Shown here: one piece after another, positions 126 through 10,714 of the stretch
How the letters are laid out: each line of letters starts with the position of its first letter
Numbering within the stretch: the stretch's first letter is position 1
Source of the DNA: Bdellovibrionota bacterium FG-2
Lineage (GTDB): Bacteria; Bdellovibrionota; UBA1018
Assembly (NCBI GenBank): GCA_051382305.1
Contig: JBBCAV010000017.1
Span: 1-11,914, forward strand
Direction: 5' to 3'
Length of the DNA: 11,914 nucleotides
Made by a program: the position numbers and the translations under genes
Notes under the pieces: model-generated
The model's database searches: none
What the model was told of the DNA's origin: nothing
What the model saw: the letters and a program-made list of their open reading frames with translations, nothing else

Positions 126-1136
126 TACCTTACAATTACCCCGCTGACCCAAAATCTAAGCCAAGGCCTCCTTTTTAGGAAGATCTATGAATTTGAGGAT
201 CCCTCCGGGACGCTCATCGCAGCAAAAACTCCTCAAACCGGGACGGCGGATCTCTTTGATGGCACGGCGATCATTGTTAAACCCAATCAGTGCGCCGTTC
301 TTGTATACAAAGGTCAGATTACGGATGTGCTGCCAGCGGGAACGCATTTTGCGAAGACCGAAAATATTCCGGTGATCACCCGGCTTGCCAATTGGAAGTT
401 TGGGCTAGAGAGTCCGTTGCGCGCAGAGCTTTGGTTTTTTTCGGGCAATGTTTTTACGGCACGACGTTGGGGAACGGCTCAGCCCATTGTCCTGAATCTC
501 GATGAGCTCGGGCCGACACCGCTGCGCGCGTTTGGCAATTATAATGTCGTCATCCGGGATCCTAAAAAAGTATTTCTCAATCTCATTGGCAGTCGCACCA
601 GTTTTGACATCACAGATATGGAAGATTTTATTCAGGGGAAAATCGTCGAGCTTTTTCCCCAAGCGGTGGCATCGGTCAGGACTCTTGAGGGCTTGGGCAC
701 CGCGCGGGATGCAGTTTCCAAGACCCTAGAAGCCTTGCTCACAAAAGAGCTCAGTATTTTTGGCGTGCAAGTTCAGAAGATTCAGGTGCTTTCGATCTTA
801 CCCCCGCAAGAAGTGATTCAGGCGCTAGACGCAAAAGTTGCGATGAAGGTTCTGGGTAATCAAAAAGAGTATTTAGTCTATAGAGCCGCCAATAGTTTGG
901 AAGCGATGGGCAGCGGCGATCACGGGGCCGGCAACTCAATGCAAATGATGCTGGGACTTATGCTGGGAAAAGGCCTGATGGGGGTGGATTCGCGGGAGCG
1001 AGAGAAGGAGCGAGAGAATGAAAAGGAAGGGCAGGCTGTTGCCCCGGTTTCAAAAAACCAAAGAATTTGCGGCGGCTGTCAAAACGCCTTGGGAGAGGGC
1101 CATAAGTTTTGTCCTCATTGCGGGAGGCAGACTTGA
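126..1136 (+). CDS. SPFH (band 7) domain protein, YdjI/'virion core protein'-like, with C-terminal zinc ribbon; true start uncertain
   Basis: The frame of the 327..1136 ORF is open back to 126 (TAG at 123-125). It reads ...GLLFRKIYEFEDPSGTLIAAK...TAIIVKPNQCAVLVYKGQITDVLPAGTHFAKTENIPVITRLANWKFGLESPLRAELWF...RRWGT...LRAFGNY, the typical YdjI-like SPFH N-terminus. It ends in CGGC...FCPHCG. There is no ATG/GTG/TTG in frame before GTG 327. Confidence 0.85.
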   Translation, partial: YLTITPLTQNLSQGLLFRKIYEFEDPSGTLIAAKTPQTGTADLFDGTAIIVKPNQCAVLVYKGQITDVLPAGTHFAKTENIPVITRLANWKFGLESPLRAELWFFSGNVFTARRWGTAQPIVLNLDELGPTPLRAFGNYNVVIRDPKKVFLNLIGSRTSFDITDMEDFIQGKIVELFPQAVASVRTLEGLGTARDAVSKTLEALLTKELSIFGVQVQKIQVLSILPPQEVIQALDAKVAMKVLGNQKEYLVYRAANSLEAMGSGDHGAGNSMQMMLGLMLGKGLMGVDSREREKERENEKEGQAVAPVSKNQRICGGCQNALGEGHKFCPHCGRQT

Positions 1137-1825
1137 GTTTTTCCGTCGTGTGCAAAAATTGTGGTGCGACGAGCAGCCCCTCCACGGGGGGTTGTCCTTT
1201 TTGCAAATCCGTGATGGCGCAGCCCCAAAAGAGTAAAGAGGCGCCGAGTTTGGTTGCCCTAAAGAAATTTTATGCGGAAGGAAATCTGCCCGCAGCGCTA
1301 GCGCTGAGTGTGACCCTGGCCTCAGAAAATCCGAAGGAAATGGAAAATGTGGGTTATCTCCTTTGTTATGCCCAGATCCTCTCGGAATCCGAAGGGCCTA
1401 CGAGCAAGATTAAGAGCCTGCTTGGGAAAGCACTGATGTTGGAGCCGCAGAACGCGCAGGTGAATGAATACCTTGAGCTCACTGAAGCCAAATCAATGCT
1501 GACAAAAGAAAAAGGGGATTTGGGAGAAAAGAAACTCCTGGATCTGCTTCGACGATCGCCTGACAATCCCCATGCCCTCTTTTTTCTAGGGGCCCATTTG
1601 TTTTGGACGCTGGATGAAACGCTTGCGCCGGTTCGCCATTTAGAGCGTTGCGTTCGTATTCATCCTAAGTTTCTTCGCGCGTGGGGCTGTTTGGGGACGA
1701 TCTATGAGAAGCTGGGAAACCCCACGCATTCGGTTAAAGCTTTTTCAAGCGCCTTGGCTGTTGAAACTGACCTGACGATGAGAGATTTTTTCAAGCAGAA
1801 GATTGAATCGTTATCGGCTCTTTAG
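1133..1825 (+). CDS. Zinc-ribbon (CxxC...CxxC) plus tetratricopeptide repeat protein
   Basis: TTG at 1133 overlaps the SPFH stop (TTGA) and follows GGAGG at 1123-1127. N-terminal CKNC...CPFC, then TPR-like helices (KALMLEPQNAQV, LLRRSPDNPHALFFLG, RAWGCLGTIYEKLG). Confidence 0.85.
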   Translation: MSFSVVCKNCGATSSPSTGGCPFCKSVMAQPQKSKEAPSLVALKKFYAEGNLPAALALSVTLASENPKEMENVGYLLCYAQILSESEGPTSKIKSLLGKALMLEPQNAQVNEYLELTEAKSMLTKEKGDLGEKKLLDLLRRSPDNPHALFFLGAHLFWTLDETLAPVRHLERCVRIHPKFLRAWGCLGTIYEKLGNPTHSVKAFSSALAVETDLTMRDFFKQKIESLSAL

Positions 1826-3634: not shown

Positions 3635-4549
3635 CTGCATCCTCGAAATCGGCATCAGGGTCACTATGACTTTGAGCAACTCATAAAGAGTTGCTGTGAG
3701 CTTGCGCCTTTCGTGTCACTGAATCCGTACAATACGCTTTCGATCGATTTTGCGGATCCAGTGGCCGTTGCTCTCCTCAATAAAACGCTCCTAAAGTATT
3801 TTTATGGGGTGGCGGAGTGGGGGATTCCCCCTGAATATCTGTGTCCACCCGTTCCGGGTAGGGCGGATTATTTGCACCACCTTGCAGATTTGTTGAGCCA
3901 CTGTAACGGCGGAACTATTCCGCGCGGGGCCTCGATTCGGGCGTTGGATATTGGTGTTGGCGCCAATTGCATTTATCCCATCATCGGGCATTGCGAATAT
4001 GGCTGGAGTTTTGTCGGCGCGGACATTGATCCTGTCGCTTTGGCTTCAGCGAAGCGGATTGTGCGCTCGAACAAAGAGCGGTTGAGCTGCGCGATTGAAT
4101 TCCGCCATTAACCCTCGCCTTCGAGCGTTGTGAGCGGTCTTCTTGGGAAAGATGAAGAGTTCGACATTTCTCTTTGTAACCCTCCTTTCCACGAGTCAAT
4201 TGAGGAAGCTCAAAAAAGCAATCGACGAAAATCCAAGAACCTAGGACAAGCGCCCGTGTTGAATTTTGGGGGTCAGGGTGCAGAGCTTTGGTGTCCTGGT
4301 GGCGAGGCCGCTTTCGTGCGGCAAATGATCGAAGAGAGCGCGGAGGTCGCGGCAAGAGTCTTTTGGTTTACGACCCTGATCTCGAAAGAAGCCACCCTCT
4401 CTGCCGTTTATAGCGCGCTTAAGAAGGCGGGAGTGGTTGAGTACAAAACGATCGACATGGCGCAGGGACAGAAGAAAAGTCGCTTCGTGGCATGGACCTT
4501 TTTGAATTCTAAGCAGCAAGAACAGTGGCGGAAAAGACGTTGGGGTTGA
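3635..4549 (+). pseudogene. rlmF: 23S rRNA (adenine1618-N6)-methyltransferase RlmF, interrupted by an in-frame TAA and lacking a canonical start
   Basis: A single frame carries LHPRNRH (3635), [47 protein letters not shown] and [18 protein letters not shown] at 4109-4111 splits it into the two track ORFs (3713..4111 and 4130..4549, same frame). Confidence 0.9.
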
Positions 4550-5643: not shown

Positions 5644-7410
5644 ATGCGCATACTTCATTTCGCTTTTGTATTTTCGGTCCTCTTCGGTCTTTCCACTTAT
5701 GCCGCTGATAGTCCTTCGGTCCCCGATTTTGAGTTCACTATTAATGACGGTATTCTCGCGGTCCGGCCCCCTAAGGGGCATCACTTCAATGTCAATGCTC
5801 CGGCCCGGCTGAGTGTTAATTCAGCTCGAGTTTCGATTCAAATCACGCCCCAGAAACTCTCAGGTCACTTGCCTCCAAACCCCAATGCCCAGATGGCTCA
5901 CCTTGAGGTTTTCATTTGCGATGAAGCCAATACTTATTGCCGCAAGAAAAGTCAGGACATTCTGGTTCCGCCCGTGGTAAAATCTGCCCCCTCGCCACAG
6001 GCCGAGCACGGGGGAAAGAAAACATCCGCTGCTCCCGCGAAAGCCGCCGCTCCACACTTTGAAACTGAAACGGGGTTTTATGTCAACGACCCGACGACGG
6101 TGTTCGCGTTGGCCAAAAACAAAAAATTACCTCTGATGATCGACTTTTTTGGAATCTGGTGTCCTCCATGTAACCATCTGGACGTCATGGTTTTTTGGGA
6201 TAAAGAATTTAGGACGCGGAATCAGAAACGCTTTGTTCAACTCAAACTAGACGCCGATCAAGATGAATTCAGTTCACTAAAGAATCGCTACAAAATCCAG
6301 GGGCTTCCAACGGTTATATTTGCCACTTCGGAAGGAGATGAGATATTTCGCATCGTCGGGTTTCATCCCCTGGATGAAATGCTCAAGAAGGCTGATGTGG
6401 CTTACCTAAGTCGCGAAGTGGGTTTTTCGCAGCTTGAGGCCCAAGCGGCTAAAGGCGATGTTCCTGCTCGCTACAAAGCGGCCCACATTGCGCTAGATCG
6501 AGATGAGCCGGCTAAAGCCTTGGAGTGGCTAACTCCCTTGATAGAGCAGATGACCCAAGCGCATGATCCCCGTCTTGCGGACCTTTATCGGGCGCGGTTG
6601 CGAATTGCACAGAGCAAAGCACAAGACAAAAAAGATGACGGAGGTTCCCAAGAGGCTTTAGCAATTCCAAACGTACTTCAGAATTGGTTAAAAGAATTTC
6701 CTTCCTCCATTGATGCGGTAGAGAACTATCAAACTCTTGCCGATCTAAAAGAAGCGGCCCACGATGCAAAAGGGCGCGCTGCTGCGCTCACAAGCGCGCT
6801 TGCGCTTACGGATCAGTTTCTCGCATCACCCTCACTCGCTCTCAAAGACAGTGAATACACTCTCGCAGATCTCTCGGCGACCCGGGCCGATATTCTCGAA
6901 AAATTAGGGGATAAAGAACGTGTGATCGCAGCCTATCTTGTGTGTGCCAAGGCTTACGAGGCTGAGGCGCGCATGGAGGGTGTTGGTTTTGCGAAGGGGC
7001 CAAAGTTGGAGCAGGCTTATTGTCTGGGAAAAGCCGGAGAGACGCTCGAAAGTGAGGCGATTTATCGAGAGGGAATTAGGAGGTTTCCGAGAGAGTATAC
7101 TTTTTATCACGGCCTGGCTAAACTTTTTTTGGGCTCTGATTCCGCGGTAAATAGTGCATTAAAAGGTGCAAAGAAAGCTTTGCCCGAAGCAAAACGTGCG
7201 GTTCTATATGGCTACGGAAACCAGAGACTCAAGGCTACCTTGACTTTGGTCCGAGCGCTCGAGGCTTTGCATGAATTTCAGCAAGCGATCACGGCGGTCG
7301 AAGAAGCGTTAAAATCACCTCCGCCCGACGAGGCCACCTTGGGAACGATCAGTCTTCGCCAAAAATTGAAGGCCAAGGCCGCTGACTTGAAGAAAAGGTC
7401 TGAAACTTGA
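5644..7410 (+). CDS. Exported thioredoxin-family protein (WCPPC) with N-terminal DsbD-N-like domain and C-terminal TPR/helical repeats
   Basis: Signal peptide; PPKGHHFN...FICDEANTYC; MIDFFGIWCPPC...YKIQGLPTVIF thioredoxin fold; TPR-like repeats (AIYREGIRRFPREYTFYHGLAKL). Starts 2 nt after the upstream stop. Confidence 0.85.
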   Translation: MRILHFAFVFSVLFGLSTYAADSPSVPDFEFTINDGILAVRPPKGHHFNVNAPARLSVNSARVSIQITPQKLSGHLPPNPNAQMAHLEVFICDEANTYCRKKSQDILVPPVVKSAPSPQAEHGGKKTSAAPAKAAAPHFETETGFYVNDPTTVFALAKNKKLPLMIDFFGIWCPPCNHLDVMVFWDKEFRTRNQKRFVQLKLDADQDEFSSLKNRYKIQGLPTVIFATSEGDEIFRIVGFHPLDEMLKKADVAYLSREVGFSQLEAQAAKGDVPARYKAAHIALDRDEPAKALEWLTPLIEQMTQAHDPRLADLYRARLRIAQSKAQDKKDDGGSQEALAIPNVLQNWLKEFPSSIDAVENYQTLADLKEAAHDAKGRAAALTSALALTDQFLASPSLALKDSEYTLADLSATRADILEKLGDKERVIAAYLVCAKAYEAEARMEGVGFAKGPKLEQAYCLGKAGETLESEAIYREGIRRFPREYTFYHGLAKLFLGSDSAVNSALKGAKKALPEAKRAVLYGYGNQRLKATLTLVRALEALHEFQQAITAVEEALKSPPPDEATLGTISLRQKLKAKAADLKKRSET

Positions 7411-7417
7411 ATAACCT

Positions 7418-7831
7418 TAGCTCGTAGAAAGTGAAAATCGAAAGAGGTTCACTTTCGCGGCAGCTATCAGATGAAAATCTAATGGCTGTCTGCTTGCGTG
7501 AGATGCGACCCTTATTCTTACGTGGGCAGATTTCCAAGGTCCCCAAGAACCTTGGGATCGAGAAAAGCGTGAAGAACGTTTTCGCTCTGAGGGGTGGATC
7601 CTACTACCTCAGCGACCAGAATCATAAGGGATTGAGAAGCAAGATTGAGGTCGTTGTCCGAAAAGGCTTTGGACACAGGGAGTTTAGGATTGAGTATTCA
7701 ATTGGGAGCTCAATCCGCGCGGACTCGAGATCAATTGGAACTCGAAGTCAGCAACGGAGTGAAAACTGCTGCAGAAGCCGAAGCAGTCCGGAGGTCGGAG
7801 ATGCCAATAACATCTCCGACCTACTTTTTTT
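7418..7831 (+). ncRNA. Candidate large structured non-coding RNA (unassigned)
   Basis: About ten consecutive hairpins found by eye, three capped by GAAA tetraloops. G-U pairs work only on the + strand. There is a long-range closing stem and a 3' intrinsic terminator. No match by eye to RNase P, tmRNA, SRP or 6S signatures. Confidence 0.45.
7792..7831 (+). terminator. Intrinsic terminator-like hairpin
   Basis: Perfect 12-bp stem AGGTCGGAGATG (7792-7803)/CATCTCCGACCT (7811-7822) with a 7-nt loop, then AC and T7 (7825-7831). Overlaps the stop codon of the convergent Rrf2 gene. Confidence 0.7.
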
Positions 7832-8222
7832 GGGGGCTGATCAATTCAGCGACTGTGACTTCGCGAAAAGATTTTTCTACCAGTGCAGTCGCATCATCTA
7901 ATTTGCGATGAAGTGGGCACAGATTCTTGCCGTGATCTTTTCGTTTTAGGGGGCAGCTCAGGATGCGGGGGAGGGGATCCACGGCTTGCACGATTTCATA
8001 AATGGTGAGCTCGTTTGGTGGGCGTGTGAGGGTAAAACCGCCGCCGAGTCCGCGCTGCGAGTTGACAAGATTGGCCTTGCTAAGATTTTGAAGTACTTTG
8101 GAGAGATATCCGGCGGGAGCTTTCGTCGCTTCGGCGATTTGTTGAGTCGTGCGGGGGCGATCAGATTCTTCTGCCATGAAAAGGATTGCGCGGAGAGCAT
8201 ATTCGGCAGTCTGGGATATCAT
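7821..8222 (-). CDS. Rrf2-family transcriptional regulator (probable Fe-S/NO sensor), 133 aa
   Basis: MISQTAEYALRA...YLSKVLQNL...SQRGLGGGFTL...TIYEIVQAVD winged-HTH signature with C-terminal CPL..H....CPLH. The start is ATG 8222. The longer track ORF (to 8390) runs through the norB promoter and start. Confidence 0.93.
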   Translation of the reverse strand: MISQTAEYALRAILFMAEESDRPRTTQQIAEATKAPAGYLSKVLQNLSKANLVNSQRGLGGGFTLTRPPNELTIYEIVQAVDPLPRILSCPLKRKDHGKNLCPLHRKLDDATALVEKSFREVTVAELISPQKK

Positions 8223-8268
8223 AATTGCATTTAATAGCAAATGACGGCTAAAAACAAGGTGTAAAATA

Positions 8269-8314
8269 AAATTGGATATCTGGACCTTGACGTCCAATTT
8301 AGAAGGAGTATATT
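8269..8314 (+). promoter_or_regulatory. norB sigma70-type promoter overlapped by a palindromic putative Rrf2 operator
   Basis: -35 TTGACG (8287-8292), 16 nt, -10 TATATT (8309-8314). Dyad TGGAC-N6-GTCCA (8281-8296) is centred on the -35, with outer arms AAATTGGA (8269-8276)/TCCAATTT (8293-8300). SD AGAGGAG at 8332-8338. Confidence 0.6.
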
Positions 8315-8345
8315 TAAGGAAACGGTCAACAAGAGGAGAATTAAG

Positions 8346-10691
8346 ATGGGGCACCAAAAGAGTTACCAAAAGAATTACAGGGATAGTCATAAGAAGCTTT
8401 GGGTCATCCTGGGATTAGTCGTGGGAGCGTCGTTTCTTACTTTAGGGTACTATGGCGCGGAGCTTTATCGCCAAGCGCCGCCGATTCCGCAAACAGTGCG
8501 CACGCAAAGTGGCACGGAACTTTTCACTGGGCAAATGATCAAGGATGGCCAGAACGTTTGGCAATCCATGGGCGGCCAGGAAAGTGGCAGCATCTGGGGA
8601 CACGGCGCTTATGTTGCCCCGGACTGGTCAGCGGACTGGCTTCATCGAGAGGCGACTACTCTGCTCGAGATCTATGCACAACAGTCCCATAGCAAAGCTT
8701 TTGCGCAATTGGACGAAAAAGACCAACTCCTGCTTCGGGCACGCCTTAAAAAAGAAATGCGCACGAACAGCTATAATGAGAAAACAGGCGAACTCGTGAT
8801 CTCCAATGAACGAGCGCAAGCGATCGCCAAAGTGAGCGAACATTATACGGCCCTGTTCGGGGACAAGCCTGAGCTCGCGTCGCTACGAAGCTCTTATGCG
8901 ATTCCGCCTAACACGATTAAGGACGGACAGCGCCAGATTTTGATGAATTCATTCTTCTTCTGGGCGGCGTGGGTTAGTGCCACTGAGCGCTCCGGAAGTG
9001 CTGTCACCTATACGAATAATTGGCCAGCCGAAGAGCTGATCGGAAACACCCCTGCGCCGCCACTTGTAATTTGGTCGATCCTAAGTTTTGTCTTATTGCT
9101 TGCGGGAGTTGGGGCATTGAGCTGGTATTATGCCGCAAGACGGGGTGCGACCGAAGAGCCGCTTATCACACCAAGCCGTGACCCTCTGTTTAATCTTCAT
9201 CTTACGCCATCGATGCAGGCCACCCTAAAATATTTTTGGATCGTCGCCGCGCTCATTTTAGTTCAAATCGGGCTTGGCGCAATCACGGCTCATTATGGGG
9301 TCGAAGGCCAAGGCTTCTATGGAATCCCTCTGGCGAAGTACCTGCCCTATGCTCTGACTCGGACTTGGCATACGCAGCTGGGGATTTTCTGGATCGCCAC
9401 CGCATGGCTCGCTACCGGTTTGTTTGTGGCTCCGGCGATTTCCGGTCAAGAGCCCAAATTTCAGCGTTTGGGCGTAAATTTTCTATTCGTGTGTTTGCTC
9501 ATTATTGTCGTGGGTTCGTTTGTGGGTCAAGCCTTCTCGCTTCAGCAAAAACTTGGATTTGAAGCGGGGTTCTGGTTTGGTCATCAGGGCTATGAGTATG
9601 TGGATCTCGGAAGATTCTGGCAGATTTTCCTTTTTGTGGGGCTCTTTGTGTGGCTGTTTCTCATGGGCCGAGCCCTCTTGCCTGCGTTGCGAAAGCCCGG
9701 TGAGGGACGCAGTTTGCTCATGCTCTTTGTGCTTTCGGCCGGCGCGATTGGTCTGTTTTACGGGGCAGGCTTAATGTGGGGCAGGCAAACCAATCTCGCG
9801 ATCGCTGAATACTGGCGTTGGTGGGTGGTCCATCTCTGGGTTGAAGGGTTCTTCGAAGTCTTTGCCGTGGCCGTGATTGGATTACTCTTTAGTCGACTGG
9901 GTCTGGTTCGAGTTTCAACGGCGAGTACGTCGATCCTTGCTTCTACTGCAATCTTCTTAACGGGAGGAATTCTCGGCACGTTTCATCATCTCTATTTTAC
10001 GGGGACCCCGACCGTGATTTTGGCGCTGGGCTCTTGTTTTAGCGCGTTGGAGATTGTGCCGTTGGTGCTCGTGGGACATGAAGCGTACGAGCACCTCTCG
10101 CTTGCGCGGGCAGACTCAAATGCGTCTCATCGTCAATGGATCCAGCAGTACAAGTGGCCCATTTACTTTTTTGTCGCCGTAGCCTTCTGGAATCTCGTGG
10201 GCGCGGGGATTTTTGGATTTCTCATTAATCCCCCGATAGCACTTTATTATGTGCAGGGCCTGAACACGACTGCCGTGCACGGACATGCCGCTTTATTTGG
10301 CGTTTACGGAATGCTCGGCATCGGACTCATGCTTTTTTGCCTAAGAAAAATGTCAGGCACGCGCGAGTGGAACGGAAAGCTGCTTAGCTTCGCATTTTGG
10401 TCGATCAATGTGGGACTCGCGCTCATGATCGTCTTGAGTTTGCTGCCCGTGGGCATCTTGCAAGCGATCGCAAGCATTGAGCACGGAATGTGGTATGCAC
10501 GCTCCGCCGAGTTTATGCAAACCGATTTGATGCAGACGCTTAAATGGATGCGGGCGATTGGTGACACGATTTTTGCACTTGGAGCTGGAGTTTTAGTTTT
10601 GTTCATTGTGGGACTAAAAACAGGCTGGTCTTATGTTCCAGAGGCGGGCTCGCGCCTGGAGTCTTTGAGTGGAATTGAAGAGAAAGCATGA
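8346..10691 (+). CDS. norB: Quinol-dependent nitric oxide reductase (qNor, single-subunit NorB/NorZ)
   Basis: GSIWGHGAYVAPDWSADWLHRE, YTNNWP, AHYGVEG, RTWHTQL, GYEYVDLGRFWQ, WRWWVVHLWVEGFFEVF, GTFHHLYF, SALE, HGHAALFGVYG and GD motifs; multiple TM helices; 781 aa. Confidence 0.97.
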   Translation: MGHQKSYQKNYRDSHKKLWVILGLVVGASFLTLGYYGAELYRQAPPIPQTVRTQSGTELFTGQMIKDGQNVWQSMGGQESGSIWGHGAYVAPDWSADWLHREATTLLEIYAQQSHSKAFAQLDEKDQLLLRARLKKEMRTNSYNEKTGELVISNERAQAIAKVSEHYTALFGDKPELASLRSSYAIPPNTIKDGQRQILMNSFFFWAAWVSATERSGSAVTYTNNWPAEELIGNTPAPPLVIWSILSFVLLLAGVGALSWYYAARRGATEEPLITPSRDPLFNLHLTPSMQATLKYFWIVAALILVQIGLGAITAHYGVEGQGFYGIPLAKYLPYALTRTWHTQLGIFWIATAWLATGLFVAPAISGQEPKFQRLGVNFLFVCLLIIVVGSFVGQAFSLQQKLGFEAGFWFGHQGYEYVDLGRFWQIFLFVGLFVWLFLMGRALLPALRKPGEGRSLLMLFVLSAGAIGLFYGAGLMWGRQTNLAIAEYWRWWVVHLWVEGFFEVFAVAVIGLLFSRLGLVRVSTASTSILASTAIFLTGGILGTFHHLYFTGTPTVILALGSCFSALEIVPLVLVGHEAYEHLSLARADSNASHRQWIQQYKWPIYFFVAVAFWNLVGAGIFGFLINPPIALYYVQGLNTTAVHGHAALFGVYGMLGIGLMLFCLRKMSGTREWNGKLLSFAFWSINVGLALMIVLSLLPVGILQAIASIEHGMWYARSAEFMQTDLMQTLKWMRAIGDTIFALGAGVLVLFIVGLKTGWSYVPEAGSRLESLSGIEEKA

Positions 10692-10714
10692 AGGAGGATA
10701 TATGAGGATATTTT

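Follow-up and report, generated by a model that had tools for sequence, protein, structure and literature searches.

A stretch of about 410 nt between two genes of Bdellovibrionota bacterium FG-2 is almost certainly a conserved, non-coding, structured and stand-alone RNA gene. The stretch was analyzed within a window of 11,914 nt (the whole piece of DNA under study, contig JBBCAV010000017.1), and it apparently represents an undescribed class of large structured RNA that is a member of no catalogued family. A first-pass annotation made from the letters of this DNA had put forward a discrete, undescribed large non-coding RNA, and this proposal is supported by homologues, by covariation among them, by the lack of both a conserved reading frame and an Rfam match, and by contigs from RNA libraries that stay within the element. 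Literature searches brought up no paper on this RNA; the supplements and candidate lists of large RNA screens lay outside their coverage and could contain it. The main text of the Minerva preprint (10.64898/2026.09.22.753630) does not mention Bdellovibrio, Oligoflex, UBA1018, kissing, ornate or sigma54.

Homologues and distribution of the RNA

Homologues were found in six other genomes, with 56-61% identity to the window copy over the core. BLAST on relatives located the 3' end in five genomes of the host's family, nhmmer extended these matches over most of the length, and a sequence-only model added one homologue from another family of the same order (E 3.6e-35). Out of 127 genomes in the class, three models, one sequence-only and two structured ones built on separate domains, each picked out an identical set of 7, which belong to four genera and include 6 of the 75 genomes of the host's family. 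Weak HMM hits (L032-L035, L037 and L038; E 0.002-0.009) were not retained, as they were recovered by neither of the structured models. The RNA is present as a single copy in every carrier and is retained by all four members of one genus, and it was not found in a 98%-complete genome from the host's own genus. It belongs to the accessory, not the housekeeping, genes.

The wider hunts were exact-pattern or filtered searches, by which diverged copies would be missed. Two samples of the phylum, 151 genomes in all, returned only the genome of the host itself. A GTDB-wide search with a terminal-hairpin pattern gave 94 loci, 14 of them with short flanks; six were true, and these came from the same six genomes. 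JGI metagenomes yielded 0 and then 68 pattern loci, none of them true, viral contigs yielded 17 loci, again none true, and 0 with a second pattern, and phage and plasmid records gave no match.

Folding and covariation of the RNA

The view that the stretch folds almost end to end agreed with its folding energy, which lies far beyond that of shuffled controls. The plus strand of the element reached -167.9 kcal/mol with a z of -7.68, and 0 of 100 shuffles folded as well; the minus strand had a z of -5.52. When 14 further tiles of 414 nt from across the window were folded, 13 gave z values from +3.4 to -2.0, and the tile overlapping the RNA gave -7.5. The RNA strand was the better-folding strand in 7/7 homologues (z -4.1 to -8.2), with about 63% of the nucleotides of the RNA paired.

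The helices named in the first-pass annotation were all located in the sequence, and the arrangement derived from the homologues is listed in Table 1. The RNA begins with the 5' hairpins P1-P5, continues through a junction with P6-P8 to P9, P10 and an optional P11, and ends with a linker, P12 and P13.

Table 1 Features of the RNA gene and its surroundings in the window
Feature	Position	Strand	Remarks
Upstream neighbour, thioredoxin/TPR protein	5644..7410	+	Unlinked to the RNA in other genomes
Predicted sigma54-type promoter	7397..7411	+	GG 7397-98 (-24), TTGAA 7407-11 (-12)
RNA gene	7422..7831	+	About 410 nt (homologues about 410-475 nt); 5' end predicted
P1 and P2 hairpins	7427..7487	+	P1 with GAAA cap; sequence variable, structure kept
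P1 stem and P2 region as first annotated	7427-35/7448-56; 7459-90	+	Located in the sequence
P3 hairpin	7488..7531	+	16 bp; 9/10 core pairs with two-sided changes; 100% of cells paired
P4 and P5	7532..7582	+	P4 7534-55, P5 7564-82; P4 loop in pseudoknot 2
Central four-way junction	7585..7680	+	Closing helix CUCUG 7585-89 / CAGGG 7676-80; carries P6, P7 and P8
P6	7591-7610	+	Arm of the four-way junction
P7	7612-54	+	GCGACC/GGUCGU; internal loop is partner in pseudoknot 1; optional GNRA hairpin (P7a) in homologues
P8	7655-75	+	Loop GGCUUU 7665-70
P9 and P10	7687..7752	+	P9 7687-7716, P10 7722-49
P11	After P10	+	Extra hairpin in six homologues
Conserved linker and P12	7753..7787	+	Linker CA..G.A..GAAAA; P12 loop GAAGCC 7774-79
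P13 and U tract	7792..7831	+	Near-invariant 11-12 bp stem; predicted intrinsic terminator
Pseudoknot 1 (pk1)	7509-15 x 7624-30	+	CCCUUAU (P3 loop) x AUAAGGG (P7 internal loop); 3/5 pairs with two-sided changes
Pseudoknot 2 (pk2)	7542-46 x 7702-06	+	CCCAA (P4 loop) x UUGGG (P9); one two-sided change (L010)
Pseudoknot 3 (pk3)	7774-79 x 7665-70	+	GAAGCC (P12 loop) x GGCUUU (P8 loop); 98% of cells paired, 3/7 pairs with two-sided changes
Convergent neighbour, Rrf2-family regulator	7821..8222	-	Divergent from the qNor nitric-oxide reductase gene norB; unlinked to the RNA elsewhere

RNAalifold on six sequences predicted 147 pairs, 55 of them with two-sided changes. The alignment of all seven sequences supported 120 pairs in 17 helices, with 95.7% of cells paired and two-sided changes at 51 pairs, counts that lean towards the structure in that it was chosen on the same alignment as it was tested on. 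None of 500 shuffles reached this structure on any of five measures, and controls with slid partners paired 38-44%; the seven sequences represent four genera, four of them come from one genus, and two are 97% identical. P1 and P10 were excluded from the tally because the alignment is off register there. Whole helices (P1, P7a, P9 and P11) are gained or lost as modules: homologue L036 is without P1, P7a and P9, and the window copy is without P7a and P11.

Some pairings proposed earlier took a different place in this structure. CCCTTAT/ATAAGGG, which had been read as a long-range stem enclosing three hairpins, is a pseudoknot, because CCCUUAU is the loop of the 16-bp hairpin P3 that had been missed. 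The CTGAGG/CCTCAG hairpin is present in the sequence, but only as an alternative register to the four-way junction supported by the homologues. The hairpin CAGC..AGT-GAAA-ACT-GCTG (7749-71) found no support; at this place the homologues keep ACUGC 7765-69 / GCAGU 7783-87, with two-sided changes at 3/5 pairs. The proposed 12-bp terminator stem (7792-7803/7811-22) with its U7 tract (7825-31) was confirmed in the sequence. Ten of the 11 core pairs of P13 are invariant over seven sequences, and P13 probably has a second role besides termination.

Predicted loop-loop pseudoknots

Taken alone, the three pseudoknots comprise 17 pairs, with 97.4% paired and 7 with two-sided changes. On four of five measures 0 of 500 shuffles reached them; on the fifth ('further pair types') 483 of 500 did, and there the shuffles were not beaten. 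An all-against-all search of 14 loops returned L8-L12 and L3-J7 as the top non-self matches. L4-L9, corresponding to pk2, ranked low because L036, which is also without pk2, has no P9. By sequence comparison, pk1 and pk3 can be regarded as well supported. In addition, a 10-nt palindrome lies in the linker of 5/7 copies, a 6-nt one in that of L036 and none in the window copy; such a palindrome would allow dimers.

Relation to known RNAs and coding potential

The first-pass annotation could not assign the RNA to RNase P, tmRNA, SRP, 6S or a known riboswitch, and a search of the window with Rfam 15 likewise gave no match over the element at E<=5. Five homologue loci gave only chance miRNA and snoRNA matches, far below the cut-off. 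RNase P RNA, tmRNA and 6S RNA each have their own copy on another contig of the genome.

It could be argued that the stretch is a protein-coding gene or a housekeeping RNA in disguise, such as SRP RNA or merRNA. A 156-aa frame is open at 7431-7901 in the window, and neither a small SRP RNA nor a c-di-GMP-I riboswitch was detected in the host genome. Against this, the 156-aa frame has no Pfam match, and the homologues conserve no reading frame: their frames are broken by indels of 1, 2 and 14 nt, and the longest open stretch ranges from 22 to 135 codons in differing frames. Ffh is absent from 75/75 family genomes searched, and the other six carriers have a separate, dissimilar c-di-GMP-I RNA. 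This explanation is largely refuted and hardly deserves any weight.

An identity with merRNA, which the first-pass annotation had suggested for comparison, was initially attractive because the host genome is without the otherwise single-copy c-di-GMP-I RNA; the riboswitch was found neither there nor in the same-genus relative. The link was rejected. The RNA holds no c-di-GMP-I aptamer, 30 riboswitch loci of the phylum are dissimilar to it (best E 0.076, on the wrong strand), a structured-model comparison with 10 such loci revealed no similarity, and in the other six carriers the c-di-GMP-I RNA lies at a separate locus. As an observation in its own right, the c-di-GMP-I aptamer occurs in 94/127 genomes of the class, in 93 as a single copy. 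The aptamer loci that were read (L256, L257, L261, L264, L265, L267, L275 and others) show a unit of about 230 nt with complementary ends GAAGAG..CTCTTC and a terminator-like hairpin, and these units are likely a stand-alone, merRNA-like sponge that extends far wider than Bdellovibrio.

SRP RNA was rejected as well: the RNA has no match to RF00169, and the Ffh M-domain (PF02978) was found in 0/75 family genomes, including 6/7 carriers. The distribution of this domain is itself unusual, with 0/75 in the host's family (f1; G000-G036 and G061-G098), 0/19 in another family (f10) and 22/127 in the class. A small SRP RNA was not found in the six genomes tested, one of which has Ffh; the signal recognition particle may have disappeared from the entire lineage.

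Genomic neighbours of the RNA

The neighbours of the RNA change with the genus, and the seven carriers show four unrelated gene settings. In one setting the neighbours are Hsp20 and a hemerythrin-like gene, and MsrAB or OxyR-like/AhpC/AhpD are close by; the others have an aldehyde dehydrogenase, an RtcB-like gene in divergent orientation and the thioredoxin/TPR and Rrf2 pair of the window, respectively. In the same-genus genome the orthologues of both neighbours are present on different contigs, neither with the RNA. No tRNA was found in six flanking regions or in the window. The neighbours are often stress genes (Hsp20, MsrAB, OxyR-like/AhpC/AhpD, Rrf2-qNor, RtcB), four of the carriers being members of one genus and so not independent cases, and this may hint at a role in stress.

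The first-pass annotation had offered either a discrete RNA gene or a very long structured 3' UTR, and only the former held up. If the element belonged to the gene before it, as a structured 3' UTR or in cis-regulation, this would fit the three of four settings in which a same-strand gene ends just upstream of the RNA, and also the window, where the promoter-like motif and the stop codon of that gene overlap. Nevertheless this reading is very improbable, because the upstream genes are unrelated to one another, the upstream gene of L255 points away from the RNA, a conserved promoter-like motif belongs to the RNA itself, and the element is missing next to the upstream gene's orthologue in the same-genus genome. 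The contigs from RNA libraries also stop short of the upstream gene.

In the window both flanking genes end inside the cassette that runs from the promoter motif to the terminator, the stop codon of the upstream gene lying in the promoter motif and the last codons of the Rrf2 gene in the terminator (7811-7831). Their same-genus orthologues have different C-terminal residues. Such a cassette brings up the idea of a ribozyme or of a mobile RNA, selfish and non-autonomous (a distant remnant of a group I/II intron, for instance), that moves from promoter to terminator as a unit. The patchy occurrence (7/127 genomes, and none detected in the same-genus genome of 98% completeness), the new neighbours in each genus and the tightness of the cassette would all suit this idea; so would the fold, as ribozymes typically have multi-junction, multi-pseudoknot folds. 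We consider it distinctly unlikely, however, given that every carrier has a single copy, that no Rfam intron or ribozyme model matched at E up to 5-10, that the RNA never lies within a gene or has an obligate RT/TnpB partner, and that it was not found in the phage, plasmid and viral collections searched. Its retention by all four members of one genus fits vertical inheritance there.

Several further features of the surroundings were observed. Two carriers from different families, L254 and L255, have a glnS gene (8984-10708 and 7597-9309, respectively) at a distance of 4-6 kb upstream of the RNA, and their GlnS proteins are 73% identical; this may be an ancestral position or a coincidence. In the window, an RlmF-type RNA methyltransferase gene (PF05971) is split in two frames (3713-4111 and 4130-4549; model positions 34-159 and 168-299), by a frameshift, by decay to a pseudogene or by an assembly error. 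At window positions 327-1825 there is an SPFH/Band-7 protein carrying a zinc ribbon and, after it, a zinc-ribbon/TPR protein; these lie about 6 kb from the RNA and were not seen near the other copies.

A conserved promoter-like motif

The consensus letters of sigma54 promoters are GG-N10-GC. These promoters are recognised at -24/-12 (PMC7057263). A motif of the form GG-N10-GA, which shares the GG-N10-G spacing, lies upstream of the RNA in 7/7 copies, all seven of which also have the terminator. G7397, G7398, T7401, A7404 and TTGAA are invariant in 7/7 homologues within flanking sequence that is not conserved, and TGGCAT lies upstream in five homologues. The -12 element carries GA where GC is usual, the predicted start is at about 7422, and rpoN was detected in 5/5 genomes tested. 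At sigma54 spacing, the TTGCT form is enriched genome-wide (24 vs 0-5) and the TTGAA form is not (3 vs 7-12), and for this reason a sigma54-type promoter is only likely as the origin of transcription. The -24 element of the window (AGGTCT) is a poor match.

The RNA in RNA libraries

Contigs from three RNA libraries of three studies (freshwater and sediment; one library only guessed to be RNA) are mostly 90-99% identical to the window copy. Within 7000-8300 their cover is limited to 7433-7798, and two records (386 and 347 nt) start and stop within the element. A fourth, near-identical run, which may be the source of the window, covers 7000-8300 entirely. The missing cover on the flanking genes was not counted alone because the relatives may have other neighbours. 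At the RNase P locus, thousands of contigs fell on RNase P RNA and almost none on the flanking protein genes, which shows that the libraries behave as RNA; this control could not isolate the host's own copy. Strand, ends and level cannot be read from the contigs, which come from runs picked for holding this stretch, so the evidence for a discrete transcript from the RNA gene is good but indirect.

The contig variants respect the structure. Of 29 variable positions, 21 lie in helices, and 19 of these keep or make a pair, as against 55% expected for random transitions (p 5e-4); four variants fall in pk1, and the pairing is kept in all four. Two runs carry a 38-39 nt insert that contains a GNRA-capped hairpin, at the position of P7a in the homologues. 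Separately, records 4 and 7 of run X2 (225 and 407 nt) align partially and have loose ends that resemble other homologues, which indicates that sediment metatranscriptomes contain more diverged family members.

A proposed mode of action

To look for a partner of the RNA, several classes were compared with its occurrence. TROVE/Ro60 was found in 0/5 carriers, reverse transcriptase in 2/5, a TnpB-like protein in 2/5 and Ffh in 1/7. Each copy has 3-5 ANGGA and 0 AANAANAA, so sponge repeats are absent, and one conserved CAGGG is base-paired; antisense targets in the genome were nothing longer than chance 15-mers. An action by shape is favoured because no tested partner tracks the RNA and it has no sponge repeats and no long antisense matches.

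On this basis we give an even chance to a model in which the RNA of about 410 nt runs from its own sigma54-type promoter to its terminator and acts by shape, likely in stress, as a stable scaffold locked by pseudoknots. Transcription would start at the sigma54-type promoter and end at the P13 terminator. The RNA would then fold compactly, locked by the three loop-loop pseudoknots, with the loops of P3, P4 and P12 (L3, L4 and L12) docking onto the central four-way junction and P9. By analogy with ROOL and GOLLD, some of these loop contacts may be made between copies, giving an RNA-only dimer or cage that could hold or shield a partner; for such an RNA-only scaffold the chances seem to us evenly balanced. 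A bolder version, in which the RNA would be a protein-free machine of new architecture (a self-assembling cage or a ribozyme), chromosomal and switched on through sigma54 under stress, is rather unlikely.

Alternatively, the RNA might serve a protein whose gene lies at another place in the genome, as a ribonucleoprotein scaffold or as a sponge, with P13 and the GAAAA linker as the binding site. The sequence of P13, and not just its pairing, is conserved across homologues of 56-61% identity, and sigma54-driven sRNAs such as CrcZ, GlmY/Z and Qrr act through proteins, both of which speak for such a partner. There are, however, no repeated sponge motifs, the conserved CAGGG being paired; no neighbour is common to all settings, and the occurrence of Ro60, RT, TnpB and Ffh does not follow that of the RNA. 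We therefore regard a protein-bound role as possible but doubtful, and prefer the scaffold acting by shape.

Comparison with known large RNAs

Few large, intricately folded RNAs are found in bacteria, and those whose role has been established are either ribozymes or core machines; the functions of ROOL, GOLLD, OLE and raiA are a long-standing open question. Sponges of the CsrB/CrcZ type, among which CrcZ is sigma54-driven, are loosely structured and carry repeated single-stranded motifs. They are similar in length to the RNA described here, which instead is about 63% paired, pseudoknotted and without repeats.

According to Karunker et al. 2013 (PMC3627812), the merRNA of Bdellovibrio has 445 nt and holds a c-di-GMP-I riboswitch; its promoter is treated in 10.1101/2025.05.17.654431. 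It resembles our RNA in belonging to the same phylum and in being of similar length, stand-alone and terminator-ended, but differs in its c-di-GMP-I aptamer, which our RNA does not have. The raiA motif RNA (PMC10861870) and OLE RNA (PMC12286853) are also chromosomal, highly structured bacterial non-coding RNAs whose biochemical function is uncertain. In contrast to these, the present RNA has no Rfam match and no fixed neighbour gene, and comes from a different phylum; no Oap-like partner came to notice.

The closest likeness is to ROOL and GOLLD (Kretsch et al. 2025, PMC12286853). According to that study, ROOL has multiple pseudoknots and no known protein partner, and its kissing loop, first seen by covariation, proved to be intermolecular. 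The shared features are a large multi-helix fold with several loop-loop pseudoknots and optional modules, a patchy spread, and no known protein partner or function (PMC12286853). Extensive covarying structure together with several pseudoknots, which marks ornate RNAs of the ROOL and GOLLD type, was found in this RNA too. The Rfam models of ROOL and GOLLD do not match it, however, and with 410-475 nt it is shorter than those RNAs, which have 659 and over 800 nt (PMC12286853). ROOL and GOLLD are phage-borne and often lie near tRNAs, whereas this RNA is chromosomal, was not found in the phage and viral collections searched, has flanks without tRNA and carries a sigma54-type motif.

The rarity of the RNA (7/127 genomes, one class) limits the breadth of the finding. 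Although its hosts are uncultured, in vitro transcription gives access to it, and its natural deletion variants define a minimal core. If it did work as a protein-free machine, it would be a small (410 nt) and tractable model for ornate RNAs, with removable modules. Alongside ROOL, GOLLD, OLE and raiA it stands as a further, unrelated class, for which three kissing contacts are predicted.
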